From: a virus | Taxonomy: Duplodnaviria > Caudoviricetes | Reading direction: 5' to 3' (one strand) | DNA length: 64,000 nt | Virus record (IMG/VR): IMGVR_UViG_3300020419_001132 | Part shown: positions 40,846-58,350 of the stretch, one piece after another | Numbering within the stretch: position 1 is the first letter of the stretch | How the letters are laid out: every line of letters begins with the position of its first letter | Notes under the pieces: generated by a model | Told to the model about the DNA's origin: nothing | What the model saw: the letters and a program-made list of their open reading frames with translations, nothing else | Databases searched by the model: none | Position numbers and translations under genes: made by a program

Positions 40846-41114
40846 TATGTTTCTAACTCCTTTTCTATTATTCCTTCTTTTGTTAGTTGTTTTACTACGT
40901 CTTGATCCACACATGAAACCATATGTGGTCTGTAGTCGCTTCCAAACTCTTCGTACAATTTAAACAATATTTTATTTCCGTTTAAGGTTGCATATCGCTT
41001 ACATTGATCTACTGAGGTGAAAGTTGGTTCGGTAAAGACATATGCCATTGGCGGTTCAACTCCTTGTAGTTGACTGTTTAGCAATGTCATTAGTGCTACA
41101 ATATAGACTGTCAT
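40845..41114 (-). CDS. Small hypothetical protein with hydrophobic N-terminus
   Basis: 89 aa; N-terminal hydrophobic stretch and two Cys. Confidence 0.65.
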   Translation of the reverse strand: MTVYIVALMTLLNSQLQGVEPPMAYVFTEPTFTSVDQCKRYATLNGNKILFKLYEEFGSDYRPHMVSCVDQDVVKQLTKEGIIEKELET

Positions 41115-42100: not shown

Positions 42101-42485
42101 TTAACTCTTCTCTTACGTATCGTTGCAATTCGTGATCTCCCACGTCTTCGGGTATTTCGTTCTTGTAAAAAAGTCTATAACTATCAGAACCATATTTCCC
42201 AACTCCATATAACATAGTAGCATCTTCTCCGTCCCATGTCAAGTAACTTTGGGTCATTTTTCTTATAGAATTTTCACGCCTGTTATAAAATCCTAAACTT
42301 CTGATAACTTCTACAACATCTTCTTTTTTACTTTTAAGAAATGATTCAGCAGTAGGCCATTTTGCAAAGAATACAGGTAGTACACGTTTCACTTGAACTC
42401 TACCTGTTTGATTTAGACAAATTACACCTACAAAGTGTTGCCATAAATTTGCAACCTGTTGTTGCACCATTAGATCTTCTCTCAT
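42078..42485 (-). CDS. Minimal HhH-GPD DNA glycosylase, MBD4-like
   Basis: ICLNQT..FFAKWPTAE..LGFYNRR..LYGVGKYGSDSYRLF..DHEL parallels the MBD4 catalytic domain. Confidence 0.75.
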   Translation of the reverse strand: MREDLMVQQQVANLWQHFVGVICLNQTGRVQVKRVLPVFFAKWPTAESFLKSKKEDVVEVIRSLGFYNRRENSIRKMTQSYLTWDGEDATMLYGVGKYGSDSYRLFYKNEIPEDVGDHELQRYVREELNGHIYTS

Positions 42486-43367: not shown

Positions 43368-44297
43368 TTAAGTTCCTATTGCATTACCAAACAAGTATAC
43401 ATGTACTCTTGCCGCTACATTATATCCACGTTTAAATGCCTTTTCAGCAACTTTGCCTGCACCTGCTATTTGTTCTTCTTCTCTAGCACCTGTTGGCATA
43501 ACCCATATAGGCCAATCTACACCTTCTGCTTTAAACAGTTTAATAACTTCTTCCATTTCTTCCCACTCTCTATCGTCTGGACCAACTACAAACTTTAATT
43601 GTCCTTTATCAGAAAGTTCTCTGTACTCTGCTACTATTTGAGGCTTGATTGCTTTTTCTCTTTTCTCACCTGCAACTGACCATAGTTTAGGACTACAACT
43701 AAAAAATATTTCTGTGTCTATCCTGTTTACCCATTCCTTAAACGGATCTCTTAACTTTTGTGTTCCGTTAGTTTCAAATGTCATACTGCCCGGCAAGTTA
43801 CCTTGTCTTTCAAGTTCTTCATATATTCCGACAGTTGCTGTCTGTCCAGTTACCATTAAAGGCTCTCCGCCTGTAATACATAAGTGTTGACTTTGTCCTG
43901 TTACTGGATGTTTAAATAATCCTTCAGGATTACTTTCGTTTTTCAATATGTCAATAATTTTATTCGCCATTACTGTCGGCGTTTCTTGACCCATCAAGTC
44001 TTTAAACTTCTTTGCCCATGTGTAACTACTATCACAACCTTTATCCCACACAGGCAAGTCTTCAACTTTTTTTACTGTTGATACATCAAAATCTTGAAAA
44101 GGTAATTCATATGTATCTGGATTTGTAGGATCTAATTGTCCAAATCCGTTGCATTGTAAATTACATAAAAAGAAACGTATCCAAGCCGTAGGCACTCCTG
44201 TGTAATGTCCTTCGCCTTGAATACTATGAAATATTTCTGAATAGTAAAACTTCTTTTCTACAGTTTTACCAAATTCATGTTGTGCTAATGCAGACAT
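43368..44297 (-). CDS. queE: 7-carboxy-7-deazaguanine synthase (radical SAM)
   Basis: YSEIFHSIQGEGHYTG..WIRFFLCNLQC...CDSSYTW; ITGGEPL; ETNGT; SPKL; RVHVYLFG. Confidence 0.85.
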   Translation of the reverse strand: MSALAQHEFGKTVEKKFYYSEIFHSIQGEGHYTGVPTAWIRFFLCNLQCNGFGQLDPTNPDTYELPFQDFDVSTVKKVEDLPVWDKGCDSSYTWAKKFKDLMGQETPTVMANKIIDILKNESNPEGLFKHPVTGQSQHLCITGGEPLMVTGQTATVGIYEELERQGNLPGSMTFETNGTQKLRDPFKEWVNRIDTEIFFSCSPKLWSVAGEKREKAIKPQIVAEYRELSDKGQLKFVVGPDDREWEEMEEVIKLFKAEGVDWPIWVMPTGAREEEQIAGAGKVAEKAFKRGYNVAARVHVYLFGNAIGT

Positions 44298-44497
44298 TAT
44301 ACTATCTCTTCTACAATGCCTAACACTTCAGCTAGTACAAAACCAATACCTGCAAACATCATTAAGTAACCTGAGTAAGCAATAACTATATCTGTATAGT
44401 CGTTTGCCGCCCAAAGTTCATAACCTGCGTAAGCCAATACGCCGCCTGCTAATATTCTTAAAACACTCTTTACCATACTTACTGTAAAATGATTCAT
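44297..44497 (-). CDS. Small membrane protein
   Basis: 66 aa with two hydrophobic helices. Confidence 0.65.
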   Translation of the reverse strand: MNHFTVSMVKSVLRILAGGVLAYAGYELWAANDYTDIVIAYSGYLMMFAGIGFVLAEVLGIVEEIV

Positions 44498-44508
44498 AAT
44501 ATATCTCC

Positions 44509-45204
44509 TTATTTGTTACAAGCAAATTCTTGTTGTAGTTTAATATTATCCATAAACTCTTTTTTAGTACCTGGATCGTCACCAAATGCTCCACGTAGTA
44601 CAGTTGTTTGTGTTAAACTACTATGAGCACCAATACCTCTATTCTCACAACAACCGTGTGTTGCTTGTAAATAAACACCTACATTAGGACTATTAGTTGC
44701 ATGTTGTATTTTATTAGCAATAACGTTATTAAGTTCTTCTTGTAGTGTTCCACGTCTAGCACACCATTGTGCAATACGTGTATATTTAGAAAGTCCTATA
44801 AGTGTTTCTGCGGCAATTATGCCAATATATGCAACACCGCTTACTGGTTGATGATGATGCGAACACATACTTTTAATTTCGCTTCTTACAACTAACATTC
44901 CTTTATAACTTTCTGTACTGTCATTAGGAAATGCAGTTGCATTAGGCATAGGATTATACCTACCACTCATCAGTTCATTTATATACATTTTTGCTAGTCG
45001 CCTGCCAGTATCCATACTGTTAGGATCATTAAACCTATCAATTACTAAGCCATCTAGTACAGATTCAAACTTAGGAGTCAATTCTTCAATTAGTGCCTCT
45101 TTGTCGCCTTTTTGTAAGACCTCAGAAATGTTGTCACCTGCCCAATAGCGGATGCCAGCATCTTGTAGTCTCATGATAATTTCTTTACTTTTACTCATTT
45201 TCAT
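44509..45204 (-). CDS. folE: GTP cyclohydrolase I
   Basis: SMCSHHHQP, GLSKYTRI, LQEEL, HGCCENRG. Confidence 0.92.
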   Translation of the reverse strand: MKMSKSKEIIMRLQDAGIRYWAGDNISEVLQKGDKEALIEELTPKFESVLDGLVIDRFNDPNSMDTGRRLAKMYINELMSGRYNPMPNATAFPNDSTESYKGMLVVRSEIKSMCSHHHQPVSGVAYIGIIAAETLIGLSKYTRIAQWCARRGTLQEELNNVIANKIQHATNSPNVGVYLQATHGCCENRGIGAHSSLTQTTVLRGAFGDDPGTKKEFMDNIKLQQEFACNK

Positions 45205-45241
45205 TCTCCGAGTTATAGACGAGGATGTCTATTATGTTATT

Positions 45242-45270
45242 ATTATACAATATATTTAGGCGATTGTCAA
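45242..45270 (-). promoter_or_regulatory. Consensus sigma70 promoter for the folE-queE operon
   Basis: Perfect TTGACA-N17-TATAAT. Confidence 0.85.
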
Positions 45271-45317
45271 TCAAAACATTCGCCCAAATTAAATTTTTGC
45301 TTGTATTTAGGTTTTTC

Positions 45318-45554
45318 TTACCCATTCAATACAGTTTTGTCGGAACTTTCAGAAAAATATTTGTCCAACATAGATAGTCTATCGTCTGCCGCCGCTAGTT
45401 TGTTTAATTCTTCTATCACTGCTTCTGTAATATCAGAATGTTCACCTATTCCAGCGGGCATAGTTTGATAGACTTTAATATTGGCCATATGGACCGCTAT
45501 CTCCCCCTCTGCCTGCTTTCTAGCCGCAATCAATAAAGCTTCACCTGGCTTCAT
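45318..45554 (-). CDS. Hypothetical protein
   Basis: 78 aa; GIGEHSD motif. Confidence 0.7.
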   Translation of the reverse strand: MKPGEALLIAARKQAEGEIAVHMANIKVYQTMPAGIGEHSDITEAVIEELNKLAAADDRLSMLDKYFSESSDKTVLNG

Positions 45555-45907
45555 CCATTACTCTCCTTACGTTTTAGGTAATTTCCTTTGTTAGGAATTA
45601 CGTTTCTGACCCCACCTCTGGGATCCTCGATATCCCCCTTATTACGGGGAATTAAGTGTACATGAGGATACATCACAGTTTGTCCTGCGGCCTCACCTAC
45701 ATTTTGTCCTATATTAAATCCATCACATATATTATCTTGTACCCATTCATATCCCCAGCCGTATGCGGCTTTATAACAATATGCTAAACACTCCCATGTT
45801 TCTTCTTTAGGCACAAACAAAATATGTCCGTCTGTGACCGGAAATCCGTCTCTATAAACTGTATAATGCTTCGTATCTATTACTATGTCAGTCCAAGGTT
45901 TATCCAT
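45551..45907 (-). CDS. HIT-family nucleotide hydrolase
   Basis: GHILFVPK; FNIGQNVGEAAGQTVMYPHVHLIPR. Confidence 0.88.
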   Translation of the reverse strand: MDKPWTDIVIDTKHYTVYRDGFPVTDGHILFVPKEETWECLAYCYKAAYGWGYEWVQDNICDGFNIGQNVGEAAGQTVMYPHVHLIPRNKGDIEDPRGGVRNVIPNKGNYLKRKESNG

Positions 45908-45912
45908 AATAT

Positions 45913-46251
45913 TTAATTTCCTACAAAAAAGTTAACAATGCCTGTTGCAAAAATAAAAACTGCTACTCCATTAATAAAAACTAGTGCTCTGTCATGCCAA
46001 AGCATACCTACTACTCCCCAACCCATTACTCCACCAAGATGAAAGAATAAGTTATATGGCTCCATACCTCCAGCACTGGTCAATACCATTCCAATAAGAA
46101 TAATAAAACTAGAAGCCCATTTAATATACCAACTTAGATCGTACTTAGGTGTAATCTTTTTAAACACTCTACTAGAGTTTAACTCCTTAATCTTATCGTC
46201 TAAATTAGGAACCCACTTTTTTATTTCTTTTTCTATATCTTTTTTATTCAT
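45913..46251 (-). CDS. Small membrane protein
   Basis: Three hydrophobic segments. Confidence 0.65.
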   Translation of the reverse strand: MNKKDIEKEIKKWVPNLDDKIKELNSSRVFKKITPKYDLSWYIKWASSFIILIGMVLTSAGGMEPYNLFFHLGGVMGWGVVGMLWHDRALVFINGVAVFIFATGIVNFFVGN

Positions 46252-46798
46252 ATGTTCCTACATTTTCCCAAGGGTAAACTAACCAAACATCTTCTTCTGC
46301 CTTGTTCACCTCATGACAAGAATAGTGTGTCTTAAATTTAAAGTCACTAGCTAAATTATCTGTTATAACCGCAAATCTTACATTTTCACACCAAACATTA
46401 CGCCAATGATCATCTTCAGGGTAACAACTACTTTGCCAGTCTTCAACAATCCAATTGAATGTTGATCCTGTATCGTTAATATCGTCAACAATTAATATAT
46501 TCTTTCCTTGTCCGTTACTGTCTGCATTAGGTGTTCCAAATGCATCTTCTGCCATCCAAGCATTAGATTCGTTTGCATATCCACTGTCACGTAAACTAAC
46601 TTTTATTGCTTCACAACGTATGCCGGTCATATTAGAAATAATTGTTGCAGGAACATTGCCGCCTCTTGTTATTCCTACAATATAATCAGGTGTCCATTGA
46701 TCCTTATACATTTGATTTACAATACTTGTGCTACAATTTTCTATGTCTTTCCATGTATAGAAATGCTTTTTAATCATATTACCAAACCCAAGATACAA
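46244..46798 (-). CDS. Type I phosphoribosyltransferase (xanthine/guanine PRT-like)
   Basis: IVGITRGG; ILIVDDINDTGSTF PRPP-binding loop; WLVYPWE. Confidence 0.85.
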   Translation of the reverse strand: MYLGFGNMIKKHFYTWKDIENCSTSIVNQMYKDQWTPDYIVGITRGGNVPATIISNMTGIRCEAIKVSLRDSGYANESNAWMAEDAFGTPNADSNGQGKNILIVDDINDTGSTFNWIVEDWQSSCYPEDDHWRNVWCENVRFAVITDNLASDFKFKTHYSCHEVNKAEEDVWLVYPWENVGTYE

Positions 46799-47339
46799 AA
46801 CTGTACCTTGTCCCTTCTGTTATTAATGTTACTTTGTGTGAGTACATAAATGTACTTGGAAATATAAGAATATCTCCTGCTCCTAGCTCAACTTTATTGT
46901 CGTCTAGCATAATAAAATCGCCGCCTGTAAAGTTATCGTTTAGTAATCCTACTACAGACAGGGTAGGAATACCTTTTCTTTCACCGTCGAACATCTGTTG
47001 AACTCGATCGGCATGCATATGCATCTGTGTATTTTCATCATACTTATTAAACCTAACATCCGTAAATCCGTCGAATCCTTGAAGTGTAGGTAATGCTATA
47101 TCTTTTTCTATGTATTGTATTAGACTATCTTTAACAATATGATGTAGTTCTTTATAGTGAGGCACTACTTGGTGAGATATAGAAAGTTCAGTATCTGTAC
47201 TAAATTTCTCTTTTTCACTATGGGAATAAAATGTATGCTTTTGCCAATCATCTTGGAAATTATCAATTATAGTATTGCATATGTTTACAGGAACTTTTTG
47301 TTTTTGAACGACTACATAAGACATAAGATCTTTCTTCAT
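46779..47339 (-). CDS. 2OG-Fe(II) oxygenase (P4H-like)
   Basis: MHADR..LNDNFTGGDF..FPS..YSHKV..GTRYSFVSW. Confidence 0.85.
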   Translation of the reverse strand: MKKDLMSYVVVQKQKVPVNICNTIIDNFQDDWQKHTFYSHSEKEKFSTDTELSISHQVVPHYKELHHIVKDSLIQYIEKDIALPTLQGFDGFTDVRFNKYDENTQMHMHADRVQQMFDGERKGIPTLSVVGLLNDNFTGGDFIMLDDNKVELGAGDILIFPSTFMYSHKVTLITEGTRYSFVSWVW

Positions 47340-47704
47340 TATACATCGCCCTCCTTCTTTTTATTAAAGTCTGACTTACACATATCATAAAATAATTTAA
47401 AATTTCTCCAAGCCTTATCTAAACCTGGATAATCTTTAGACATTTCTTCCACATCATTTTTAAAATTAGTTTCTGTATAGGATGCTTCTCCGGGACTAAT
47501 ATTCACTGTGAACTCTGATCCAGTATCATTTGTTCCATATGTTAAAGGATCAAACCTTCCATCTCCATAAGATACACCGCTTGTTCCTCCGCCTGTTGAT
47601 GTTACATCGTATGTAATAGTATCGCCTAAATCTAAATTGAGTTGATCGATATTAACAGTTACAGTATCTTCCAAGTTTATTTTGTAAGTGGTATCATCTC
47701 CCAT
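47339..47704 (-). CDS. Hypothetical protein
   Basis: 121 aa; ends in a YPGLDKAWRNFK motif. Confidence 0.65.
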   Translation of the reverse strand: MGDDTTYKINLEDTVTVNIDQLNLDLGDTITYDVTSTGGGTSGVSYGDGRFDPLTYGTNDTGSEFTVNISPGEASYTETNFKNDVEEMSKDYPGLDKAWRNFKLFYDMCKSDFNKKKEGDV

Positions 47705-48753
47705 TATATAGCCTCATATAACTGCTTACCAGAAAAGAAATCTGTGTTAAGTTTTTTTACTTGTTTATCTAATGGTACAAGAAAGTCTTCGTAGTGTTCC
47801 ATGTATTCGGATATCTGATTAACAACTTCTGATCTATGAATTTTGTAACTTGCAAAACTTTCTGTCCATTTGCTAGGATATTTAAAATCTGGCAAAGCCA
47901 TTTCTTCGTAGCTAAGTCTGTCTGGAACCATTGGTATTGCACCAACAACTGCTCCTTCGTACCAACTAATACCTAGTGTTTCTTGTAAGTTTGCACTAAA
48001 CACCATCTTAGCTTCTCCTAGCAAGTTATGATATTGATTCTTATCAAGTTGTTTTTCTTGACAAACAACAAAATCGTATTGTGGTAACTGTGTTGCTAAA
48101 TCACTGAAGATTTCTAGTTGTTTCTCTGGAGCAATTCTATGTGGAAAAAGTATTAAATTACGTTTCTGCATTCCTTTATATGGAAGCAATTCTTCACGTA
48201 AATACTCCATAGGCCACCCGACTCGAACACTTTTTTCATCTAATTCTATTCCTTCTAACATAAGTTCATTACTAAACATATTAATATGAAACTCTGTAGC
48301 AAAGAAGTTGTGATTATAGCATTCATACATACTAGCTTCAGCTTTTCTAACCCAAGGTTTGTTACCAATTAGTCTACCTAAAAAGTCGTGCGGATCATAA
48401 CTACCAGCATGCCACATGCCACCAATGCTAATGTCAACACCCAATAATTCTGCCATATAACGCAATTGAATAACTGTAGGATTCCAGGCATCGGTGTACA
48501 AAAAATAATCATCGTCTTTAACCTTGCCATTGCAGAACATTTCTCCTATTTGTTCGAGTTGTTTACTCTTATATATGTTCGTTCCGCCAAAGTTAAGAAA
48601 CGCCCCAGGCGTTGTTGCTTGAGGAGTCTCTCCTCCACTTATAGTGACGACTTCCTCATTAGTAGACCGTTTAAGTTGCTTAGGAAGATGCTCCTTCCAC
48701 TGTTTAGTATACCTAGTGTCTACTGCTTCAATGTCTACTATATAAATGGTCAT
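47704..48753 (-). CDS. GT-B (GT4-like) glycosyltransferase
   Basis: FPHRIAPEKQ and ETLGISWYE (EX7E motif), GAIPMVPDRLSYEE. Confidence 0.75.
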   Translation of the reverse strand: MTIYIVDIEAVDTRYTKQWKEHLPKQLKRSTNEEVVTISGGETPQATTPGAFLNFGGTNIYKSKQLEQIGEMFCNGKVKDDDYFLYTDAWNPTVIQLRYMAELLGVDISIGGMWHAGSYDPHDFLGRLIGNKPWVRKAEASMYECYNHNFFATEFHINMFSNELMLEGIELDEKSVRVGWPMEYLREELLPYKGMQKRNLILFPHRIAPEKQLEIFSDLATQLPQYDFVVCQEKQLDKNQYHNLLGEAKMVFSANLQETLGISWYEGAVVGAIPMVPDRLSYEEMALPDFKYPSKWTESFASYKIHRSEVVNQISEYMEHYEDFLVPLDKQVKKLNTDFFSGKQLYEAI

Positions 48754-48935
48754 CGTCTTTTATTATTCCTCCATTTTTTTCTAGTTCTAGACCAAGCCAT
48801 ATAACTTTCCCAAGTTCTGTCGCCTTTTTTATAAAGGCTGGCTTCTTTAAAAACTTTACCTTCGAGTCTACAGTAATCTCGGAATGTGTCGAGATCGTCA
48901 AAAATTTTCCTAATAAGGGGATTCTTAATTGCCAT
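48750..48935 (-). CDS. Small hypothetical protein
   Basis: MAIKNPLIRKIF..., SD AAGGA before ATG 48935. Confidence 0.6.
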   Translation of the reverse strand: MAIKNPLIRKIFDDLDTFRDYCRLEGKVFKEASLYKKGDRTWESYMAWSRTRKKWRNNKRR

Positions 48936-48951
48936 GATAGTTCCTTGTATA

Positions 48952-49440
48952 TCATTGTGTGGGGTAATAAATCGAACAGCCGTTTTCACCGTCTTCAGCA
49001 ACGTCAATCTCTACAAATCGGCCTGGGTATTTTGCAGAAATCTCTTGATATAAGTCATCAGCAATCATTTCGCATGACTTATGATTTAATTCTATTACAT
49101 CTTCATTGTATAGTTTTTCCATCCATCGTTTAAACTGAATAAATTCAATATCACGATCATCATGGAATACTTCTATTCGCACTTTGAAGTGGAATATATG
49201 TCGATGTGCAACGCCTAAGAAGCTCACGTCGTCCCAGTCTCCTGTTGCAAGTTTTGGATCATCTTTAGCCGCTGGATACAAATGTATTCCTTCTTTTCTA
49301 AATGTTACCCAAATACTTCGCTTTGCATTTTTCACTGCATCTTCCATACCTTTTACCTTCTCCATAAGTTCTTCAAACCGAGCTTCTCTCTTATTGACTA
49401 AGTTTATTATATTATCTTTAGATGATTTTGTCAAGTCCAT
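48952..49440 (-). CDS. QueD-like T-fold protein (LxxxHRHxF variant; QueD or DpdL-type)
   Basis: LGVAHRHIFHFKV..HDDRDIEF..SCEMIA..EDGENG; lacks the canonical CxxxHGH cysteine. Confidence 0.7.
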   Translation of the reverse strand: MDLTKSSKDNIINLVNKREARFEELMEKVKGMEDAVKNAKRSIWVTFRKEGIHLYPAAKDDPKLATGDWDDVSFLGVAHRHIFHFKVRIEVFHDDRDIEFIQFKRWMEKLYNEDVIELNHKSCEMIADDLYQEISAKYPGRFVEIDVAEDGENGCSIYYPTQ

Positions 49441-49933
49441 AATCTTTCCATTCTGTAAATTTATCTCTATGCATCAAATCATGTAGACTATGACACCAAA
49501 CACCAGGATTAGATGCCTTAAAGTCTTTATCGTCAATTTTTAACATAGTGTTATAGTTCCATTGTTTTATATAAGGAACAGGTACACGCAGTTGCGGAAT
49601 AAAATTATCATATTCGCAAAGTCCACCCTCTAAAAATTCTTCTGCGTATTTTATAGGAATATCTAGAGAGCATAACTTACCAGCTGACAAAAATGCTTTA
49701 ATAAGATTCTCCCATGATTCCCATTCTTTATCATTCTCTGGATGGAATGAATGATTTGCACCAAAGAATATATGTTCACATTGATTTTCATCATAATGTT
49801 TTTGTATTTCGTGAGGTTCGTGTACTCCTGTAACAAATAGTGTTTTTAATCCATATGCAGGAGTCTTTTCTACTTCATTACCTATGAACATTTTAACATC
49901 AGTTTGTGTGCCGTTTTCGTAATCTCTATTCAT
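49418..49933 (-). CDS. Hypothetical protein inside the deazaguanine locus
   Basis: 171 aa; IFFGANHSF, NPGVWCHS motifs. Confidence 0.7.
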   Translation of the reverse strand: MNRDYENGTQTDVKMFIGNEVEKTPAYGLKTLFVTGVHEPHEIQKHYDENQCEHIFFGANHSFHPENDKEWESWENLIKAFLSAGKLCSLDIPIKYAEEFLEGGLCEYDNFIPQLRVPVPYIKQWNYNTMLKIDDKDFKASNPGVWCHSLHDLMHRDKFTEWKDYGLDKII

Positions 49934-50139
49934 TTGCTTATCATCACTAAAATTGCAGTAAAGAAAAGTGCAAAGAACACAACCGTATAGTCTTTTTTTG
50001 GTTCTATTTTACAAGCCTCCTCAAACTCACTGTAATCTAAAGGCATATAATCTCTGTTCCATGCATCTCTTCTTGTATCTTTCTTACGTTGATCGACTTT
50101 GATAGATCCTGGGTCTACTTTATAATCTTCCTTTTTCAT
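49930..50139 (-). CDS. Small protein with C-terminal TM helix
   Basis: 69 aa coupled ORF. Confidence 0.6.
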   Translation of the reverse strand: MKKEDYKVDPGSIKVDQRKKDTRRDAWNRDYMPLDYSEFEEACKIEPKKDYTVVFFALFFTAILVMISK

Positions 50140-50534
50140 CTATCATTTCCTTTCATTGCAAAATACAATCCACCAACCCATAGCATAACATGAAAGTTAT
50201 CATAAAGGATAACATCCATAAAGCTCTCAGGTTGTCCTACCCAAATCACTCCAGTCATAATACATCCAATAGTAAATCCACTGAACTTAGTTATTAAATT
50301 TCCTACCCAGGGCCATAATCTTTTCCAAAGTGCAGAAATTCCTCCGATTAGCAGGCCAAACCCTGCTCCTAGTTCACCTAATATTACAAATACCCAAACT
50401 ATATAAGGCAATTCGAAACTTTGTGCATCTTCAATTGAGATAGGTAGTTTAATAAGTCCTTGTTGAATAAACACTATTGCAAGAGGTACTCTTAGCAACC
50501 AACCAGGTAAGTGTTCGTTTATTTTCTGTATCAT
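50136..50534 (-). CDS. DoxX-family membrane protein
   Basis: LLRVPLAIVFIQQGLIK..ELGAGFGLLIG. Confidence 0.7.
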   Translation of the reverse strand: MIQKINEHLPGWLLRVPLAIVFIQQGLIKLPISIEDAQSFELPYIVWVFVILGELGAGFGLLIGGISALWKRLWPWVGNLITKFSGFTIGCIMTGVIWVGQPESFMDVILYDNFHVMLWVGGLYFAMKGNDR

Positions 50535-50713
50535 TTTCTTTTTATATGATCCTTTAGTGCTAACTTTTGTTTCTTTAATTTTACTAGATGTTCTTTAGTT
50601 TCCCAACTTCTATCGTAATTTCTTTCTGCTTCTACTTGCTCTACTTTCTTATGAAAGTAATCAAACATATTTTGCATCTTTTTAGCCTTCTTGGTGGCTC
50701 TTCCAGTACTCAT
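50531..50713 (-). CDS. DUF465-like small coiled-coil protein
   Basis: HKKVEQVE..LKKQKLALKDHI. Confidence 0.55.
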   Translation of the reverse strand: MSTGRATKKAKKMQNMFDYFHKKVEQVEAERNYDRSWETKEHLVKLKKQKLALKDHIKRK

Positions 50714-52173
50714 TATATCTCCTCAAACAAATTATTGAACTGCGAACTTGCATTTACAGTTCTCTTTCCAGTAGCACCTCTTGTTCCAATAATCGACATC
50801 CAAAACTTTGAAAACTCTTCTATCACAAGATTTGCTTCATCTCTGCTACTTGTAGCAAAAATAGCTTCAACGACATCTTTGAAGTATACTCTATCAAATC
50901 GTTCGTCTACTAACATAGCAGGAATAGTATTATTGTCGTATTTTCTATTTGCTTCTTGTACTGCATTAATGTGCATCCATACATTGTGTCCCATCATTAT
51001 TGCATAAGAAAAACTATCCCAACTAGTTTTACCTTCTTTTCCTATTTTATTTAGGTCTCCTGGACCATATATACAAATGTCTTTAGCCATTAATTCTGCA
51101 GTAATAGGAGAGTCTAAGAAACTTGTATGTTTTCCTTCTCTAACAAATGCAGTACCAAACGGCGTAGTATCTGTAGATAAACTTTTGTCATCTATACTAG
51201 GAACCATTCTGTATACCCATTTAGATCTATCTTGGGTTTCTAGTTCGCAATATATTTGTCCATTCGCTGTTGCTAAAAACGGACTAGCACAGTCAAATGT
51301 TACAGTAAAGTTTTCGTTATGATACTTACGAACTGCTCTTTGTATATCAGTAAGTAGTGTAGCCCATTCTAGTTTGCTTGTGCCTAAAAAGTGCATTACA
51401 TCATGTATACCTTTTTCTAGTAATCCGTCAAATCTTAGTGCAACTAGTCGTTTCAAAACAAGATGCACATCACACATATTCTGTCCACCCATTGACCATC
51501 CATTAAAGTGATCATTAGGATATTTTTTAGGATCACAATAGTCTTTCATCTGATTATACCAGTCATCTGCATCAGCATGATTTTCGCCTTGTAAAACATT
51601 TAGGAATTTACAAGCACCAGATCTATTTTTCATCCAATAATCGTTATTGATACGTGTGGCATTTACTGCATCTTGGTAGTTGTCAATACCAGTAGCTTTT
51701 GCACCCTCGGGTGAACGTGAAACCCAAGCCGGAATATCTAATATCATTCCATAGTCCATGTAAGCATCCATCCATCGTAGAACACCATCACGTTTCTTTT
51801 GTGCTTTAGGACAATTAGGATCTTTCCAATCGCCTTCCCAAACACCTTTACCTATTTGAAATCCACCAGAGTCTCCTAATATCCAACTGTTATTTCTATC
51901 TCTGTTCCGAATCATATCTTCTTTAGGAGAATCTTTGTTAATATCTAGCTCAGCATGACCTGCAGAATACAAAGTCCATTTGTACTGAAATTGACCCTGT
52001 GTTGGATTAATGTAATTAAGACCTTCTACACCATTTTTTAAGTTACTAGGTATTCTTGACGTTTCAACATATTCATCAAAACGTTGTTTTCCAACATATG
52101 TAGCATAAAATCCGCTTAAAGCTGGAAGAAATCTAGCATAATCTTTTTGTTGTGCAGTTAAGTCTGTAATCAT
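50713..52173 (-). CDS. dpdA: DNA 7-deazaguanine transglycosylase (TGT fold)
   Basis: GDSGGFQ, MILDIP, LNVLQG, GWSMGG, HFLGTS, TFDCASP; co-located with folE/queD-like/queE. Confidence 0.75.
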   Translation of the reverse strand: MITDLTAQQKDYARFLPALSGFYATYVGKQRFDEYVETSRIPSNLKNGVEGLNYINPTQGQFQYKWTLYSAGHAELDINKDSPKEDMIRNRDRNNSWILGDSGGFQIGKGVWEGDWKDPNCPKAQKKRDGVLRWMDAYMDYGMILDIPAWVSRSPEGAKATGIDNYQDAVNATRINNDYWMKNRSGACKFLNVLQGENHADADDWYNQMKDYCDPKKYPNDHFNGWSMGGQNMCDVHLVLKRLVALRFDGLLEKGIHDVMHFLGTSKLEWATLLTDIQRAVRKYHNENFTVTFDCASPFLATANGQIYCELETQDRSKWVYRMVPSIDDKSLSTDTTPFGTAFVREGKHTSFLDSPITAELMAKDICIYGPGDLNKIGKEGKTSWDSFSYAIMMGHNVWMHINAVQEANRKYDNNTIPAMLVDERFDRVYFKDVVEAIFATSSRDEANLVIEEFSKFWMSIIGTRGATGKRTVNASSQFNNLFEEI

Positions 52174-52430
52174 GAATCAGCTCTCCACCTATACACTTCT
52201 GGGATACAAAAATTTCTGCCCCATTTACAAGTATTATCTTCTTTGCATACACGTTCGTGTTTACTGTTTTCCCAACAATCACCTGTTAGTCCTCGCATCT
52301 TTACAAGTTTCGCAAATCCATCATCTATTGATAGCATAATAATAGAAGGAAAAATTAAGCCCATGGTTACAATCCAAAAGAATGCCCAACCAAAGCCTTT
52401 ATTATGATATGGTTGATTTGGATCACTCAT
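52170..52430 (-). CDS. Small membrane protein
   Basis: N-terminal TM helix; Cys-containing C-terminus. Confidence 0.6.
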   Translation of the reverse strand: MSDPNQPYHNKGFGWAFFWIVTMGLIFPSIIMLSIDDGFAKLVKMRGLTGDCWENSKHERVCKEDNTCKWGRNFCIPEVYRWRADS

Positions 52431-53158
52431 TATTTGCTCTGAGCTGGTAGTATATAGTCGTATTTTACCATACCACTATCTACTGAAATTTGCATAGCAC
52501 CTTGATCACTCAAACTCATAGTTAAATTACCGTCTAAGTTAAGTATAGATTGAACTTGTGCGACAGGCCAACTCCAAGTATGTGCTAGTGTACCTTCTAT
52601 TCCGTGATGGAAAACAAATTCACCTGCATGTGTGCTTTGATCACCGAACGCAAAAACAAGATTACCATCTTTTGTACTAACATTAAAGTTAGGCTCTTCT
52701 GAATGTGCCGCACTCATTAGTTTCATTCTTGCAATACTTGCCACACTTGGGGCAAATGTAACTTGCCACTGGGCACCTTTAAATTTTACTGTTTTAAGTT
52801 TTTCGTCAATGATTGCTTTGTTCATAAAACGATAATCATTTTGGAAATCACCAGCCGCATTTTCAAAATGAATATGTGTAGGAACAGTTTCTCCATTTCT
52901 TTCTGCTTTTACAACTTCTATCTTTGCATCTTTTTGATATTCTGGATTCTTTAAATGCAATGCAAGTTTGTCTAAATTTGGCATACCAAAAGTATTTTGA
53001 AATTCGCCTACTGCTGACTGTGCTTCAGCAGATAGTATAACACTACGGTCTTCAGCCATAGAGTCAATCTGTGTTCCTTCTTCGTTTGTAACTTTTACCA
53101 AGCTCAAGAACCCTAAAGCATGAGTGTGTGCTACAATATCTTGTAAGATGTCTTTCAT
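52430..53158 (-). CDS. Sliding clamp (T4 gp45-like)
   Basis: 242 aa two-repeat alpha/beta pattern, near the DNA polymerase. Confidence 0.6.
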   Translation of the reverse strand: MKDILQDIVAHTHALGFLSLVKVTNEEGTQIDSMAEDRSVILSAEAQSAVGEFQNTFGMPNLDKLALHLKNPEYQKDAKIEVVKAERNGETVPTHIHFENAAGDFQNDYRFMNKAIIDEKLKTVKFKGAQWQVTFAPSVASIARMKLMSAAHSEEPNFNVSTKDGNLVFAFGDQSTHAGEFVFHHGIEGTLAHTWSWPVAQVQSILNLDGNLTMSLSDQGAMQISVDSGMVKYDYILPAQSK

Positions 53159-53178
53159 ATTATTCTCCTATTGTTATT

Positions 53179-53207
53179 ATTATAGTATCTAAGTGGTTGA
53201 AAGTCAA
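53179..53207 (-). promoter_or_regulatory. sigma70-type promoter
   Basis: TTGACT-N17-TATAAT upstream of the clamp-dpdA operon. Confidence 0.8.
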
Positions 53208-53989
53208 GTGTTTTTCCTAACTTTATTGTTATATTCTACCGCTGATCTTATGATATTTAGATCGATGCCGGCATTGTCTGCTGATTTTAGGATAGCATTT
53301 GCATCCTTTGGAAAGCAATGACCACCAAAGCCTCTTTCTTCTGTGACCTTGGTATGACTATGTCCTATTCTAGGATCTTCGCCAATTTCTTGAGCTACTT
53401 TATCGAAGTCTATATTTAATTTTTTACACATATCAAATATCTGATTAAAAAAACTTACCTTAGTAGCTAAAAATGCATTGCGAAATACCTTTGCAATTAT
53501 TAATTCTTTAGGTTCGCTTATAATAATGTTTTTGCCACAGTTATTAAAAACTTCAGTCCAATACGGAATATCATCGCCACCAAGAGATATATCTTCACAA
53601 TCTAATAAATCTTTTGTTGCAGTTTTAGATCTCAAATACTCAGGACTAAAAGTTATGTTATGTTTAGGAAATTTTTCTTTTAAATTAAACCAACCATCAA
53701 TACTAATAGTGCTTTTTATAAGTACTGGAATGTTTTCTTTTGTTTGAGATAATACTTCAAAAATGTTTGACATATTACATGCACCATCATAGTCTTCAGG
53801 AGTGCTTACACAAACTATTACACTTTCTGAATTATAATCACTAATCCTACCTAAAAAAGTTTTCTGTTTGCCTAAAATTCTATAGTATTCTGGATCAACA
53901 ATTTGTGTCATGTAATCAAAATCGTTAAGTAATTTTTCGTGAGCTTGTCCTACAGACCCATATCCAGCAATTATAATGTATCCGGTCAT
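53204..53989 (-). CDS. ugd: UDP-glucose/GDP-mannose 6-dehydrogenase family (C-terminal domain absent)
   Basis: AGYGSVG, SPEYLR, RNAFLATKVSFFN, DPRIG, GFGGHCFPKD. Confidence 0.88.
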   Translation of the reverse strand: MTGYIIIAGYGSVGQAHEKLLNDFDYMTQIVDPEYYRILGKQKTFLGRISDYNSESVIVCVSTPEDYDGACNMSNIFEVLSQTKENIPVLIKSTISIDGWFNLKEKFPKHNITFSPEYLRSKTATKDLLDCEDISLGGDDIPYWTEVFNNCGKNIIISEPKELIIAKVFRNAFLATKVSFFNQIFDMCKKLNIDFDKVAQEIGEDPRIGHSHTKVTEERGFGGHCFPKDANAILKSADNAGIDLNIIRSAVEYNNKVRKNT

Positions 53990-54156
53990 TCAGTATCCTC
54001 TATGCAGACAAAGCCTACACCTGGTTCTGCCTCTTGTTCTTCTATGATAGCATTTTTCCAGCATTCGTATGAGCCTGTATAATAATTAATTGATTCTCCG
54101 GTTACAGTTCCGTTAGCAAGAATAGTAACCATTACAAGTATGTAACCATATATCAT
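53986..54156 (-). CDS. Small hypothetical protein (56 aa, not in ORF track)
   Basis: MIYGYILVMVTILANG...GFVCIEDTE*; ATGA overlaps at both ends. Confidence 0.6.
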   Translation of the reverse strand: MIYGYILVMVTILANGTVTGESINYYTGSYECWKNAIIEEQEAEPGVGFVCIEDTE

Positions 54157-54557
54157 TCGCAAATCCTCTTTCTTAAATCAGTTGTACTAAATCTATGATC
54201 TCTTTTGTTAAAATATAATTCAATTCCTAAACGTCTACAAATATCTTTTCCAGTAAAGTCTTTATCTTTATATTCTTCACCTAATATACGTATATCTATT
54301 TGATACATTTCAAGTATGTCTTCTACATCTTTTTCTGTTGTGTAAGGAATAATTTCGTCAACATATTTTACACCTTTTAATTGGGTATAACGTTCTACAA
54401 TAGTTTGAATTGGCTTGTTCTTTTCTGGTCTGTCTATGGTAGGATCTAATTGTAGTCCTGCAACCAAATAATCGCATTTATTTTTTGACTCTCTAAGCAT
54501 TGCAATGTGGCCTGCATGTAGCAAATCAAATGCACTAAAGGTTATTCCAACTTTCAA
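54153..54557 (-). CDS. Cytidylyltransferase (glycerol-3-phosphate CTase-like)
   Basis: FDLLHAGH (HxGH), ER..QL..VKYVDEIIPY, FSTTDLR. Confidence 0.88.
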   Translation of the reverse strand: MKVGITFSAFDLLHAGHIAMLRESKNKCDYLVAGLQLDPTIDRPEKNKPIQTIVERYTQLKGVKYVDEIIPYTTEKDVEDILEMYQIDIRILGEEYKDKDFTGKDICRRLGIELYFNKRDHRFSTTDLRKRICE

Positions 54558-55279
54558 TTAGCTACTCCTGTTTTTTGTAGATTTTCTAAGATTTCTTTAG
54601 TCTCTCGCCAGTTCTTAACTTGTTTAGCAACTCCACCTCTTTCTTTGACTGCATAAGCTAAACTAAAATCGTTGCCATCAGGATCCATTCTATCTCCAAA
54701 GAAGAATAATTTTTCGTCGTCTTTAAAATGACTTACAATTTGTCTTTTATCTTTTCCTTTAGATATAATATCTATACCTGTTTCTCCGCCTACTACTGCA
54801 CTTACATCTGGAAATTTATTGTTTACTGCTTCAGCTATGTTTACACGTTCTTCACTTTGCATATCCCAATAATAGTAGTCTTTTCTTTGTACTTTATCAG
54901 CTTTTCTACCAACTACGGAAAAGTTTATCATACCTGGACGATGTTCTATGTGCTTACCTGTTTTAGTTTGGTATTCACTTCCTTGCAAATGGTTTTCTAA
55001 AAATGCCAATAGTTCAGCAGATGGTTTCCAGTTGTTTGTGTATACATTTTGTTGCTTTTCCCATATGTCATTACCATTACAGTTGTAACATTTGTTTACA
55101 CTTTTACATATTTCTATTCCTAGTTGCTCTACAGTTTTAGGATTATCACTACCTGTAACTAAAGACACAGGATTTTGTTGTGCAAAATACATAAACCATA
55201 ATGCAAATTCAGATTGTATTCTTTTACGGCTTGGAGTTAGTGTGCCGTCTACGTCAAATAAGAAATGATTCCTATTCAC
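54554..55279 (-). CDS. HAD-IIB phosphomannomutase-like enzyme
   Basis: FDVDGTLTPSR, IEHRPGMINFSVVGR, GGETGIDI, FFGDRMDPDGNDF. Confidence 0.82.
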   Translation of the reverse strand: MNRNHFLFDVDGTLTPSRKRIQSEFALWFMYFAQQNPVSLVTGSDNPKTVEQLGIEICKSVNKCYNCNGNDIWEKQQNVYTNNWKPSAELLAFLENHLQGSEYQTKTGKHIEHRPGMINFSVVGRKADKVQRKDYYYWDMQSEERVNIAEAVNNKFPDVSAVVGGETGIDIISKGKDKRQIVSHFKDDEKLFFFGDRMDPDGNDFSLAYAVKERGGVAKQVKNWRETKEILENLQKTGVAN

Positions 55280-55697
55280 TATTTTTCTCCTTTATATCTA
55301 GTTTTTCTAAACTTAATTTTTCCTTTGCACTCATTAAATAAGCGGCACCTGCAAGTACAAGAATTGCTCCTGCTTCTGCAATAAGCACCCAAGGATCAGC
55401 ATCCTTTGAATGTAATATAATTAATCTACATAATGCTGTCATAGCAATAATAATTGGTAATGTTACAGGTATTCTATTACTAATAAAGTATGCTCCTACC
55501 ATTCCAACTATTTCAGTGTAAATAAATAGCAAAAATAGATCAGCAAGTTGTATTTGTTTTGCAACCCACATATCCCATACTGAGGTTCCTGCGGCAACAA
55601 CAGTTAAACAACCTATAAATGCTAACATACCTTTTTCTGTTAAGGTAGTTGTCCAATGCAATCTTTTATTAACTTCCATATTACTCTCCAAAGTCAA
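55272..55697 (-). CDS. PsiE-like membrane protein
   Basis: LADLFLLFIYTEIVGMV..IIIAMTALCRLIIL. Confidence 0.7.
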   Translation of the reverse strand: MTLESNMEVNKRLHWTTTLTEKGMLAFIGCLTVVAAGTSVWDMWVAKQIQLADLFLLFIYTEIVGMVGAYFISNRIPVTLPIIIAMTALCRLIILHSKDADPWVLIAEAGAILVLAGAAYLMSAKEKLSLEKLDIKEKNSE

Positions 55698-58350
55698 ACA
55701 AGCTACTAAATGTGTTTTGTTGTTTAGTATCTTCTAAATTATAGTTTAGCACACCAATAAGATTGTCAAGTTTATTGTCAATAATAGTTTCTTCCATAGC
55801 ATCATTATCAAATGGAAGTTCTTTAAACCAATCTGGTATACGTAATTCATCTGTAGGATATGCAACACTAGTATAACCAAGTGGGTTATTTTTAAGTTTA
55901 CATACAATAACTTTCATTCCGTCAACTATTTCCTGCGAATACTTGTCTCCGTTCATACGTTTTAGTGTATTCCAGTTAATACTTGCTCTAACATGTCCGG
56001 GCATATTTGCCTTTCCTTGTTTTTCTTCTAGCCTTCTATAGTGTCCAACTTTATTAGCACGTTTGGGAGAGCCTTTCTCCCAACCGGGACGTTCTTTAAA
56101 GTCTCGCCTAAATTCTGTAATACGTTCTAGTACTTGCTCCTGTGGAATATCTGTAAGCACCATTAGTAATAGCTCACTTAAAAACTGTTGCATGAATACT
56201 GGCGTATCGGATCTTCGTAAGTCTAAGCCCATTGCTTTTACTTTACCTGGCTTACCGTCTACGTCACTTCTAAAGCCTTCAATATCATATACTAGTGCCG
56301 CATAACGTTTTTTAGTAATATAAAGTCCGCTTTCTGCTACAATTTCTCTACCTGCGGCAATAACATCTGATCTGCTTTTAGGACAATGAAATGCAGTTAA
56401 CATAAACTTTTCAAATGTTGTATTTGCTTCTTCTGCAACTTGGTCGTATAGGGTAATAACGTTATCTTTTGACCAAGGAATATTACCAGCCTCGATATCT
56501 TTTTTAAGTGTAGGATAAGCACTAAAATAAACAGAATCTGTATCACCATATATAACTGCTTGGCCTACATGATCATATGTTCCTGTTATTACCTTGTTTA
56601 CCTCAGCACTCATATGCTTAACAATAGTCCTGCCAGACAATGTTGTTGACTGACCAATACGTTTATCAAAGAATCTACAACCAGGATTAAGTATAGCACC
56701 ATATAAACTGTTTAAGTTAATCTTTTTAACAAGTTGTCTTTTGTCCCAATATTCAGTTTCTATTGCATTGCCGGCATCTTTTGCTTTTTTAAGTTGGGCT
56801 TGTAACTCTTTACGTTCTGCATACCAACGTGCAAGGATTCCAGGTATAACACCTTCAAACTCAGTTGTAAAAATAGTTCCATTAGAACTAAGCATCCAAG
56901 GCATGTTGCTGTCAAATACTAGCTTGTAGATTTCAGCACCACTCATTACTTGACTTTCTTGGTTTTCAAAGTCAACTGTAATGGCAATGTCTTTTCTCTT
57001 TGCCATGACTGCTTCGTATTCTTCTGAGCCGAACTTTCCTTCCCATGCTCCTGCAAAAGACTTCTTTTGCAGTACCATTGCATCATGTAGCATTGCTTCT
57101 GTATGCTCAGCACGTAGTTGTCCAACAATAGTTTCTGGAGCCATATTCAATGCACGAATTACACTAGGATACAGACTGTTTAAGTCCATTGACCCAATCC
57201 ATTTATGCAAACCTTTTTTAGGAAATGCTACATAGGCACCTGCGGCCGCAGTATTTTCGTCATCACGTTTTGGTCTGTTAGGAACTTGTAGTCCTCTATG
57301 ATGAGCTTCGTTGATAATTGCTTGTTCTGTAACTGCTACTGCACCCATAGTGGTTTGAAGCAAAACAGTATTTGCATGTGCTAGTTCGTTACTTAGATCA
57401 ATAAATCTTAGTTTTTTGTCCAGCTTGTCCAGTAATGCGGTATCTTGTATGTTGTATTCAATGAACTTTCTAAAGTCATTGTTGTACAGTTGATCCAAAG
57501 TTCCTTCATACGGAACCTTATTCTCTCCAACTTCGAGCTCGCCAATTGCATCAAGTCTATAAGTGTGTCTTTCTTCATATGTATATTTACGATATAATTC
57601 TAAACTATCTAAATGTACCCTGCCTACTAGGTCATAGGTTACAGCTGATTTGCCGTACTTTTCATATTCACGTTTTTTAGGAAGTTGTTTCCATAAGCAA
57701 AATCTTCTTGTGTCATCTTTGCTTAGTACCCTACTAGTTCTATTTACTGTATAAGGTATATCATAACCTTCACTGTTCCAGCCTGATAATATATCAGCAT
57801 CTTCGATTAATGTTAAGAAAGTGTCGATCATTTCACCTTCTTTTTCAAACAACATTACATTTTCAATGCCTTCAAGTTCTTTCTTTGCTTGATCCATTGT
57901 AAGTGTTTTAGGAGGAACGGCTAAACATATCATTGTTTCCATCCACTGTAAGTAAACACTTATACTTGTAATTGGCATAAACGGATCTGCAGGATCAGCA
58001 AATCCTCGTTCTGGGTCATAATCTGTCTCAATGTCAAAAAATGCAATGTTTAGTTTAGGTGCATCTTGATTGAGATAGTTTTCGCTTAGACATTGGAATA
58101 TAGGATTTATGTCGCTTTCAAAAAGTTCTTTGCCTTTGTTGATAGCAACTTCTTTACGAAAGTCCTTTGTGTTTTTAGAAACAATCCTCGTTAAAGGATC
58201 ACCATATATACTTTTATGTTTACCTTTTAGATCTTTGTAATAGAATGTATATTTTACGGGATATTCGTGAAATCTTCGTTTGCCGTCTACTCTTTCGACG
58301 ACCTTTATTATATCTTGATCACGGTCAAAGACCGCATCTACGTAACTCAT
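55681..58350 (-). CDS. polB: Family B DNA polymerase (T4 gp43-like)
   Basis: Exo FDIETD; pol motifs DLNSLYPS, KINLNSLYG, YGDTDS; no insertion seen. Confidence 0.97.
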   Translation of the reverse strand: MSYVDAVFDRDQDIIKVVERVDGKRRFHEYPVKYTFYYKDLKGKHKSIYGDPLTRIVSKNTKDFRKEVAINKGKELFESDINPIFQCLSENYLNQDAPKLNIAFFDIETDYDPERGFADPADPFMPITSISVYLQWMETMICLAVPPKTLTMDQAKKELEGIENVMLFEKEGEMIDTFLTLIEDADILSGWNSEGYDIPYTVNRTSRVLSKDDTRRFCLWKQLPKKREYEKYGKSAVTYDLVGRVHLDSLELYRKYTYEERHTYRLDAIGELEVGENKVPYEGTLDQLYNNDFRKFIEYNIQDTALLDKLDKKLRFIDLSNELAHANTVLLQTTMGAVAVTEQAIINEAHHRGLQVPNRPKRDDENTAAAGAYVAFPKKGLHKWIGSMDLNSLYPSVIRALNMAPETIVGQLRAEHTEAMLHDAMVLQKKSFAGAWEGKFGSEEYEAVMAKRKDIAITVDFENQESQVMSGAEIYKLVFDSNMPWMLSSNGTIFTTEFEGVIPGILARWYAERKELQAQLKKAKDAGNAIETEYWDKRQLVKKINLNSLYGAILNPGCRFFDKRIGQSTTLSGRTIVKHMSAEVNKVITGTYDHVGQAVIYGDTDSVYFSAYPTLKKDIEAGNIPWSKDNVITLYDQVAEEANTTFEKFMLTAFHCPKSRSDVIAAGREIVAESGLYITKKRYAALVYDIEGFRSDVDGKPGKVKAMGLDLRRSDTPVFMQQFLSELLLMVLTDIPQEQVLERITEFRRDFKERPGWEKGSPKRANKVGHYRRLEEKQGKANMPGHVRASINWNTLKRMNGDKYSQEIVDGMKVIVCKLKNNPLGYTSVAYPTDELRIPDWFKELPFDNDAMEETIIDNKLDNLIGVLNYNLEDTKQQNTFSSLFDFGE

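Follow-up and report, generated by a model that had tools for sequence, protein, structure and literature searches.

The Cellulophaga phage phiST makes 2′-deoxy-7-deazaguanosine (dDG) with the enzymes FolE, QueD, QueE, DpdL and DpdA3 (Cui, Hutinet et al., NAR 2023, PMC10516641). In that system, DpdL is the predicted decarboxylase of 7-carboxy-7-deazaguanine (CDG), and it is defined by an LxxxHRHxF motif in place of the CxxxHGH of QueD (PMC10516641). Here we describe a locus at positions 43368-55279 of a 64,000-nucleotide stretch of DNA (the window) from the IMG/VR virus record IMGVR_UViG_3300020419_001132 (Duplodnaviria; Caudoviricetes), in which a glycosyltransferase (GT) gene lies within a predicted 7-deazaguanine DNA-modification module. 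On balance, we favour the reading that this module is linked to the replisome, that the GT is dedicated to it, and that the virion DNA carries a sugar-bearing 7-deazaguanine. To our knowledge, eight 7-deazaguanine derivatives occur in phage DNA, none of which bears a sugar, and glycosylation of DNA bases is known for hydroxymethyl-pyrimidines only. In the literature that was searched, an incomplete sample of the field, we found no description of DNA that contains a glycosylated deazaguanine.

A first-pass annotation of the window, made from the sequence alone, had listed queE, folE, a QueD-like gene, a dpdA/TGT (tRNA-guanine transglycosylase) gene, a GT, an oxygenase, a phosphoribosyltransferase (PRTase) and a HIT-family protein in this locus, and all of them were found in place. 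The QueD-like gene is present but is not QueD: it carries the LxxxHRHxF motif and is of the DpdL type, which makes the dDG system of phiST, not named in that annotation, the closest known system. The locus resembles the phiST cluster in having FolE and QueE, an LxxxHRHxF paralogue of QueD and a TGT-superfamily enzyme, in having no QueC, and in the position of these genes among replication genes. It differs from phiST, which has no GT, PRTase or HIT gene and no homologue of a conserved protein that we call p171; in their place, phiST encodes a MazG-like pyrophosphatase and a kinase-like ATPase. The DpdL proteins of the two are only 31% identical, and the DpdA-like protein of the window aligns weakly with the DpdA3 candidate of phiST (hhalign probability 36%, E 3.9e-4).

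The Pseudomonas jumbo phage PA5oct (Wroclawvirus) shares with the window the order family B DNA polymerase (PolB), clamp-like protein, DpdA-like protein (36% identity), GT (44%), DpdL (59%), PRTase-like protein and QueE (37%). It also has QueD elsewhere in its genome, and no QueC. In contrast to the window, the PA5oct cluster contains no oxygenase or sugar-nucleotide gene, and no p171 homologue was detected in this phage. Its DpdA-like protein and DpdL are annotated as hypothetical, while the GT is unnamed in most records and is called a "family 4 glycosyltransferase" in one PA5oct-like record. PA5oct DNA resists cleavage at G-containing restriction sites, and a modified G was inferred by the authors from the presence of QueE and a 6-pyruvoyl-tetrahydropterin synthase (PTPS) (PMC12191111).

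Phages ACP17 (Acidovorax) and X1 (Xanthomonas) also encode the GT (42% and 26% identity, respectively), DpdL (53% and 50%) and a p171 homologue together with FolE, QueE and DpdA. They differ in their DpdA, which is of a different subfamily, one related to the KVP40/nt-1 type, and which can be tied to the window enzyme at the profile level only (hhalign probability 94.6% for ACP17). Expression of dpdL and dpdA from ACP17 in E. coli yielded no dDG, and the authors suggested that enzymes were missing (PMC10516641). In concept, the proposed system further resembles the glucosyl-hydroxymethylcytosine of T-even phages, where a phage GT-B enzyme places the sugar of a nucleoside diphosphate (NDP)-sugar on a non-canonical base and the sugar varies by lineage. 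The T-even base is a pyrimidine made at the nucleotide level, whereas a purine analogue would here be introduced by base exchange.

Conservation of the glycosyltransferase within the module

We compared 157 IMG/VR loci that surround relatives (27-100% identity) of the DpdA-like protein and clustered their open reading frames (ORFs); alignments of relatives were built from these loci together with search results. The order PolB, a variable stretch, clamp, DpdA, p171, DpdL, a basic protein of 60-80 aa, GT, p121, a second variable stretch, PRTase, HIT, p78, FolE and QueE is kept across the loci. The GT is present in 93 of the 99 loci that have at least 4 kb downstream of DpdA. Two of the six loci without it end just past DpdL, and the other four are Phosso-like, with DpdA separated from the other genes of the module. 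In the 32 loci that extend 8 kb or more beyond DpdA (the long loci), p171, DpdL and the GT are always present, mostly together with the PRTase (30), FolE (28), QueE (27) and HIT (24). Among cultured phages, the GT adjoins DpdL inside the FolE/QueE clusters of PA5oct-like phages, ACP17, X1 and the Sinorhizobium phage Phosso. These GT-DpdL clusters span two DpdA types (PA5oct-like/Phosso and ACP17/X1), and the DpdA-like gene is found between the clamp and replication genes in every lineage.

The GT family comprises 1,174 representatives at 50% clustering, and we inspected the neighbourhoods of five members at 28-33% identity. For three of these the contig is long enough for a judgement, and in each case the GT sits in a deazaguanine cluster. 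The first has DpdL, the GT and a DpdA-like gene beside a clamp loader. The second has QueE, FolE, the GT, a 428-aa ORF, a polysaccharide deacetylase, a methyltransferase and a PTPS, and the third has an FdtA-like isomerase, a UDP-GlcNAc 2-epimerase, FolE, the GT, a radical-SAM gene and a PTPS. The fourth contig (7 kb) is too short to judge and carries a second GT4 enzyme, a PurT-like ATP-grasp protein, a PRTase and a NUDIX gene; the fifth extends over 1.3 kb only. Whether the GT stays linked to dpdA in relatives had been put forward as a test of the glycosylated-base proposal. Across the loci with a judgeable neighbourhood, the four cultured groups and these distantly related GTs it does, and we regard the linkage of the GT to the deazaguanine module as solid.

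The GT (47704-48753, minus strand, as are all genes of the locus) is a protein of 349 aa, and its AlphaFold2 (AF2) model (pLDDT 94.9) has a GT-B fold of the GT4 type. Foldseek matches to this model include BshA, MshA, glycogen synthase and PimA, with E down to 1e-10, as well as PglA; the matches among Swiss-Prot models of the AlphaFold database (AFDB) are likewise GT4 enzymes, and the model superposes on that of the ACP17 GT with a TM score of 0.90. The two glutamates of the EX7E motif, E258 and E266, are invariant or nearly so, as are the diphosphate-binding residues R206 and K211, and 95 of 106 GT relatives contain both the EX7E and the FPHRxAPEK motif. This agrees with the EX7E GT-B enzyme that had been recognized at 47704. 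PF00534 gave no match to the window GT at E 0.01, and it matches 28 of 58 family members, with a best E of 5.7e-9. Sequence and profile searches of the PDB with the DpdA-like protein, the GT and p171 returned nothing significant. The isoelectric point was tried as a means of sorting DNA-binding from small-molecule GTs and was discarded, as it gave no separation (5.1 for the GT and 5.7 for the DpdA-like protein).

The DpdA-like protein (50713-52173; 486 aa) is assigned as a putative DNA-guanine transglycosylase of a PA5oct-type subfamily from its predicted structure. The top 50 PDB structural matches to its AF2 model (pLDDT 89.9) are all tRNA-guanine transglycosylases (E ~1e-6). No sequence match was obtained in Pfam, PHROG or the PDB; the Pfam TGT model detects no phage DpdA, accepted ones included, and is uninformative either way. 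The candidate catalytic residues are D101, within DSGGFQ, and D294, within FDCASP, which falls on the nucleophile motif FDCVMPT of E. coli Tgt in a profile alignment. Each of 153 relatives contains DSGG[FY]Q, and 150 of them have the nucleophile motif. BLAST recovered homologues in PA5oct-like phages, Phosso and one Vibrio phage only.

DpdL (48952-49440) is a T-fold protein whose motif reads LGVAHRHIF. The LxxxHRHxF signature is present in 122 of 122 homologues collected, and H53, H79, H81 and E124 are invariant. The window protein is 53-69% identical to those of ACP17, PA5oct and Phosso. Immediately upstream, and overlapping dpdL by 23 nt, is the gene for p171 (49418-49933), which has no Pfam, PHROG, NCBIfam or PDB match; Pfam scans of 24 family members were also empty, and an ESM-Atlas look-up gave only sub-threshold, glycosyl-hydrolase-like leads. 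An apparent fusion of p171 and DpdL in three loci was rejected after the ORFs were called again, as a stop codon separates the two genes. DpdL and the GT are separated by a small basic protein of 61 aa (48750-48935), the stop codon of which overlaps the GT start (ATGA) and whose cluster (c7) is found at this position in 99 loci.

Of the CDG synthesis genes, FolE (GTP cyclohydrolase I; 44509-45204) matches PF01227 at 2.5e-36 and the NCBIfam FolE model at 1.6e-38, the latter under its curated cut-off. QueE, a radical-SAM CDG synthase (43368-44297), matches phrog_2076 at 5.7e-55 and the NCBIfam QueE models weakly, under their cut-offs. Its cluster motif is unusual: C45 and C49 are spaced by three residues and C88 follows past a 38-residue insert (C-x3-C-x38-C). 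The form C-x3-C-(35-50 residues)-CD[ST] is kept in 37 of 37 relatives, a spacing unlike both the usual CxxxCxxC and the known Cx14CxxC variant.

A canonical QueD (PTPS, CxxxHGH) was absent from the whole 85.6 kb record, which is itself an estimated ~24% of the genome. The gene lies within the cluster in ACP17 and far from it in PA5oct, Phosso and X1; because these last three complete relatives keep their PTPS at a distance, the missing QueD of the window most likely lies outside the fragment. In one marine relative, a PTPS-family protein with CxxxHGY, not the CxxxHGH of QueD, is encoded ~60 kb from the module (L085, 1495-2013); no homologue of it was found in the record of the window or in three other long relatives. 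We found no QueC in the 85.6 kb record, and none above cut-off in PA5oct, Phosso, ACP17, X1 or a 256 kb relative. Family scans of the ORFs in the region returned no QueC, QueF or Gat-QueC, no search having been aimed at QueF. The earlier statement that queC, queF and gat-queC are missing from the locus thus holds, for QueC across the record and for QueF within the reach of these scans.

Two genes downstream of QueE lies a protein of 135 aa that resembles HhH-GPD base-excision glycosylases (42078-42485, minus strand). The position of this family (cluster c39) within the module shifts among relatives, and in Phosso an annotated "glycosylase" directly adjoins DpdL and the GT. The HhH-GPD-like protein might act in concert with the modified base or protect it.

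Nucleotide-sugar and tailoring genes

Three sugar genes occupy the stretch between the clamp-like gene (52430-53158; phrog_12062, 1.2e-30), which anchors the module, and PolB (55681-58350; PF00136 and PF03104). The first encodes a short NDP-sugar dehydrogenase-like protein of 261 aa (53204-53989; PF00984, 2.2e-25), which matches TIGR03026 at 2.1e-36 across profile positions 76-298 of 413. The second encodes a sugar-phosphate or glycerol-phosphate nucleotidyltransferase of 134 aa (54153-54557; PF01467, 2.3e-12), similar to RfaE domain II and TagD, with best matches to rfaE_dom_II (1.9e-19) and g3p_cytidyltrns (3.9e-18). The third is a HAD-IIB phosphomutase/phosphatase that resembles phosphomannomutase (PMM) (54554-55279; PF03332, 3.5e-25). 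The first-pass annotation had placed a UDP-glucose dehydrogenase, a cytidylyltransferase and a PMM-like gene between clamp and polymerase. The genes are there, but the dehydrogenase-like protein keeps the catalytic Cys motif GGHCFPKD without the C-terminal nucleotide-sugar domain.

These genes are variable among relatives. In the long loci, the nucleotidyltransferase occurs in 15 of 32, the PMM-like gene in nine and the dehydrogenase-like gene in seven, and in some distant lineages the nucleotidyltransferase and the dehydrogenase lie directly between the GT and FolE. A short-chain dehydrogenase/reductase (SDR) epimerase or dehydratase is found in 64 loci, beside the clamp or right after the GT, and further genes come and go within the module, including those for GFO/MocA, alcohol dehydrogenase (ADH)-like, DegT, class-III aminotransferase, B12 radical-SAM and methyltransferase proteins. 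If the attached sugar differed from lineage to lineage, one would expect just such a pattern of a conserved GT amid exchangeable genes for sugar tailoring. A polysaccharide deacetylase (CE4) follows a GT and a putative DpdA in one relative (L195, 10303-11073), and an FdtA-like isomerase is paired with a UDP-GlcNAc 2-epimerase in another (L196, 4316-6026). Such neighbours hint at amino sugars or sugars derived from N-acetylhexosamine (HexNAc), by a logic analogous to that of BshA/BshB and MshA/MshB. Jumbo phages of this group also carry a second set of sugar and tailoring genes; in the 256 kb relative, an SDR epimerase, a DegT protein, B12-binding radical-SAM enzymes and a 2-oxoglutarate (2OG) oxygenase are encoded away from the module, at ~143-152 kb and 175-181 kb.

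Directly downstream of the GT is the gene for p121 (47339-47704), an acidic protein with no family match in Pfam or PHROG, whose cluster is present in 28 of the 32 long loci. It is followed by a 2OG-Fe(II) oxygenase similar to prolyl 4-hydroxylases (2OG-FeII_Oxy_3; 46779-47339; PF13640, 3.8e-10), which is the sole PF13640 gene of the 85.6 kb record. Among the loci compared, this gene is limited to the window and one contig that is 100% identical (L005), while two other 2OG families (c59 and c42) fill slots between the GT and HIT in ~13 other loci. The proposal that an oxygenase and GT pair, first hydroxylating and then glycosylating the base, forms the core of the system does not stand, as this oxygenase is confined to one strain and most GT-bearing relatives have none. 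For the same reason, hydroxylation cannot be what creates the acceptor for the GT. We read the 2OG oxygenase as a strain-specific accessory gene for optional tailoring.

The next gene encodes a purine-type PRTase resembling XPRT and HGPRT (46244-46798; PF00156, 2.8e-14), which matches the NCBIfam xanthine PRTase model at 3.4e-13, under its cut-off; a weak homologue is present in the PA5oct cluster. Most simply, this enzyme salvages the guanine released by base exchange. A HIT-family nucleotide hydrolase or transferase (45551-45907; PF01230, 5.7e-10) and the small conserved protein p78 (45318-45554; phrog_1811, 1.1e-20) lie between the PRTase and FolE, and p78 is found between HIT and FolE in many relatives.

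A proposed route to a sugar-bearing base and its alternatives

In the route that we propose, FolE, QueE and a QueD from another part of the genome or from the host would convert GTP to CDG, as expected from family membership by hidden Markov models and from established enzymology. DpdL, probably together with p171, would then convert CDG to 7-deazaguanine or another 7-substituted base, following a proposal in the literature. The fold, the Asp motifs and the clamp/polymerase position of the DpdA-like enzyme suggest that it would exchange this base for G in phage DNA. Lastly, the GT may add a sugar from an NDP-sugar to the base, either free or already inserted in DNA, a role suggested by gene co-occurrence. 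In this strain, the donor could be made or altered by the PMM-like, nucleotidyltransferase and dehydrogenase-like enzymes, and could for example carry a hexose or a hexuronic acid.

For both timings of the last step there is a precedent. Glycosylation at the level of the base would resemble the case of eukaryotic TGT, which inserts a base with a bulky 7-substituent. Glycosylation at the level of DNA has a precedent in QTMAN, a GT4 enzyme that glycosylates queuosine after its insertion into tRNA. QTMAN/GTDC1 and the window GT would be alike as GT4 enzymes of the GT-B fold acting on a 7-deazaguanine derivative that a TGT has already placed in a nucleic acid, and Drosophila QTMAN is structural match 17 of the GT among Swiss-Prot AFDB models (E 4.3e-9). 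Their kinship is limited to the GT4 fold, and QTMAN acts on the cyclopentenediol of queuosine in tRNA, a group that the pathway here cannot make because it is without QueC, QueF, QueA and QueG.

Several observations weigh against a sugar-bearing base. If DpdL yields 7-deazaguanine, with a hydrogen at C7, this base offers a GT4 enzyme no obvious hydroxyl or carboxyl acceptor. Phage phiST makes dDG with DpdL and no detectable GT, so that a DpdL system as such can do without a GT. In structure, the GT is closest mostly to GT4 enzymes acting on small molecules or glycans; its top 50 PDB structural matches are GT4 enzymes and do not include the DNA glucosyltransferases of T4, which speaks against membership of the T4 family but not against a similar mode of action. 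The three sugar genes of the window are absent from many relatives, and since the 256 kb relative has sugar clusters outside its module, their assignment to the GT is itself conjectural. Short, near-exact contigs within the GT, DpdL/p171, DpdA-like and QueE genes, from the marine RNA libraries of two studies, are compatible with transcription of these genes, but could also reflect carry-over of DNA.

There are two ways around the missing acceptor: either the product of DpdL and p171 in GT-bearing phages is not plain 7-deazaguanine, or the sugar is placed on the carboxyl of CDG or on an exocyclic nitrogen. A different product is possible since the DpdL proteins of GT-bearing phages are so distant from that of phiST. 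A chemical precedent for glycosylation at nitrogen exists in the N2-glycosylated preQ0 natural products huimycin and dapiramicin. Extending the proposal to other phages, we tentatively suggest that PA5oct, ACP17, X1, Phosso and the present lineage could all carry a glycosylated 7-deazaguanine, the sugar of which would vary by lineage (hexose, hexuronic acid, deoxy- or amino-sugar, or deacetylated HexNAc).

It is also conceivable, if unlikely, that the locus is a plain DpdL system as in phiST, which makes dDG or its 7-carboxy counterpart (dCDG) without a sugar, and that the GT acts on a pterin intermediate, a protein or a glycan of the host envelope. Under this alternative, the close association of the GT with DpdL, QueE and DpdA, which persists in relatives as distant as 28% identity and with either of two DpdA types, would be hard to explain by co-regulation alone. 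DpdL never occurs without QueE, and no sepiapterin-reductase-like step is conserved. The pteridine glucosyltransferases of cyanobacteria provide a model for a pterin-directed GT, and a tetrahydrobiopterin glucosyltransferase is indeed found at rank 34 of the structural matches of the window GT, whose nearest structural neighbours act on small molecules. The other sugar clusters of these jumbo phages and the formation of dDG by phiST without a GT would also fit such a role, but the ACP17 pair of dpdL and dpdA, expressed without the GT, gave no dDG (PMC10516641).

We consider it improbable that the modified base is instead made before replication, with the PRTase joining a deazaguanine base, with or without a sugar, to phosphoribosyl pyrophosphate, HIT and host enzymes processing the product, the polymerase incorporating it, and the TGT-like enzyme having a minor or different role. 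Toyocamycin and tubercidin biosynthesis, in which a deazapurine is coupled by a PRTase, offers an analogy for this route. The frequency of the PRTase and HIT genes in the long loci, together with the weak PRTase homologue in PA5oct, could be read in the same way, but salvage of guanine is a simpler account of the PRTase. In phiST, a MazG-like NTP pyrophosphohydrolase and a kinase-like ATPase adjoin DpdL, and one distant relative of the GT lies beside a PRTase and a NUDIX gene; in the window no dedicated kinase or reductase was seen. A TGT-fold enzyme with intact catalytic motifs is moreover universal among these loci, which is the signature of post-replicative insertion in the literature (PMC10516641).

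That the TGT-like enzyme targets tRNA or, as in the deazaguanylation of Cap10 in type IV CBASS, a protein, and that the module does not modify DNA, is very improbable: TGT-family enzymes do act on tRNA, and one acting on protein is described in a preprint (bioRxiv 10.1101/2025.04.06.647259), but the DpdA-like gene keeps its place between clamp and replication genes in every lineage and is homologous to the phage DpdA of ACP17, and PA5oct, which has the same module, has DNA resistant to cleavage at G-containing sites (PMC12191111).

A GT as a fixed part of the DpdL-type module, as we favour, would add a new class of purine hypermodification, and a glycosylated product would be the first example in DNA of a purine base with a sugar. 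Sugars that vary by lineage would parallel the sugar diversity of hydroxymethylcytosine in T-even phages and would be driven by the same arms race with modification-dependent nucleases. The GT could also explain the failure to reconstitute dDG in E. coli from dpdL and dpdA of ACP17, and could help to identify the modified G of PA5oct, a candidate therapeutic phage. Such a base would matter for evasion of restriction and CRISPR, for modification-dependent defence such as END nucleases and for sequencing bias. The question can be tested directly in cultured relatives.

Lineage, occurrence and neighbouring genes

The source record is an IMG/VR virus record of 85,654 bp, with a GC content of ~33-36%. 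Every gene between 28 kb and 64 kb of the window is on the minus strand, and the genes of 43368-55279 are close-packed, with several overlaps of start and stop codons. The PolB of the window is ~50% identical to the polymerases of PA5oct and Phosso, and the window is thus part of the genome of an abundant marine jumbo phage, a distant relative of both. Homologues of the clamp-like gene are annotated as a sliding clamp in Phosso and as a structural protein in PA5oct. A megablast search of the locus against GenBank phages gave no match. Near-identical DNA is found in marine metagenomes from ~8 independent studies (2014-2025), and one run from 2018 contains the exact strain at ~27x depth, with zero-mismatch contigs over the whole of 43368-55697. 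This run bears an organism label, not a metagenome label, and could hint at a host or an enrichment culture. The DpdA-like and GT proteins have matches in more than 7,700 protein clusters (at 90% identity). Because the lineage is this widespread, the proposed base would be common in the ocean.

Three small membrane proteins are encoded in or at the edge of the locus, namely DUF6552 (45913-46251), DoxX (50136-50534) and, in the stretch between clamp and PolB, PsiE (55272-55697). They are present in few relatives only and are probably unrelated cargo. Further downstream of QueE on the same strand, a 5′-3′ exonuclease or flap endonuclease (FEN)-like gene is located at 41111-42100, and a MoxR-like AAA ATPase (38270-39355) adjoins a DUF2201 metallopeptidase/VWA protein (36772-38160).

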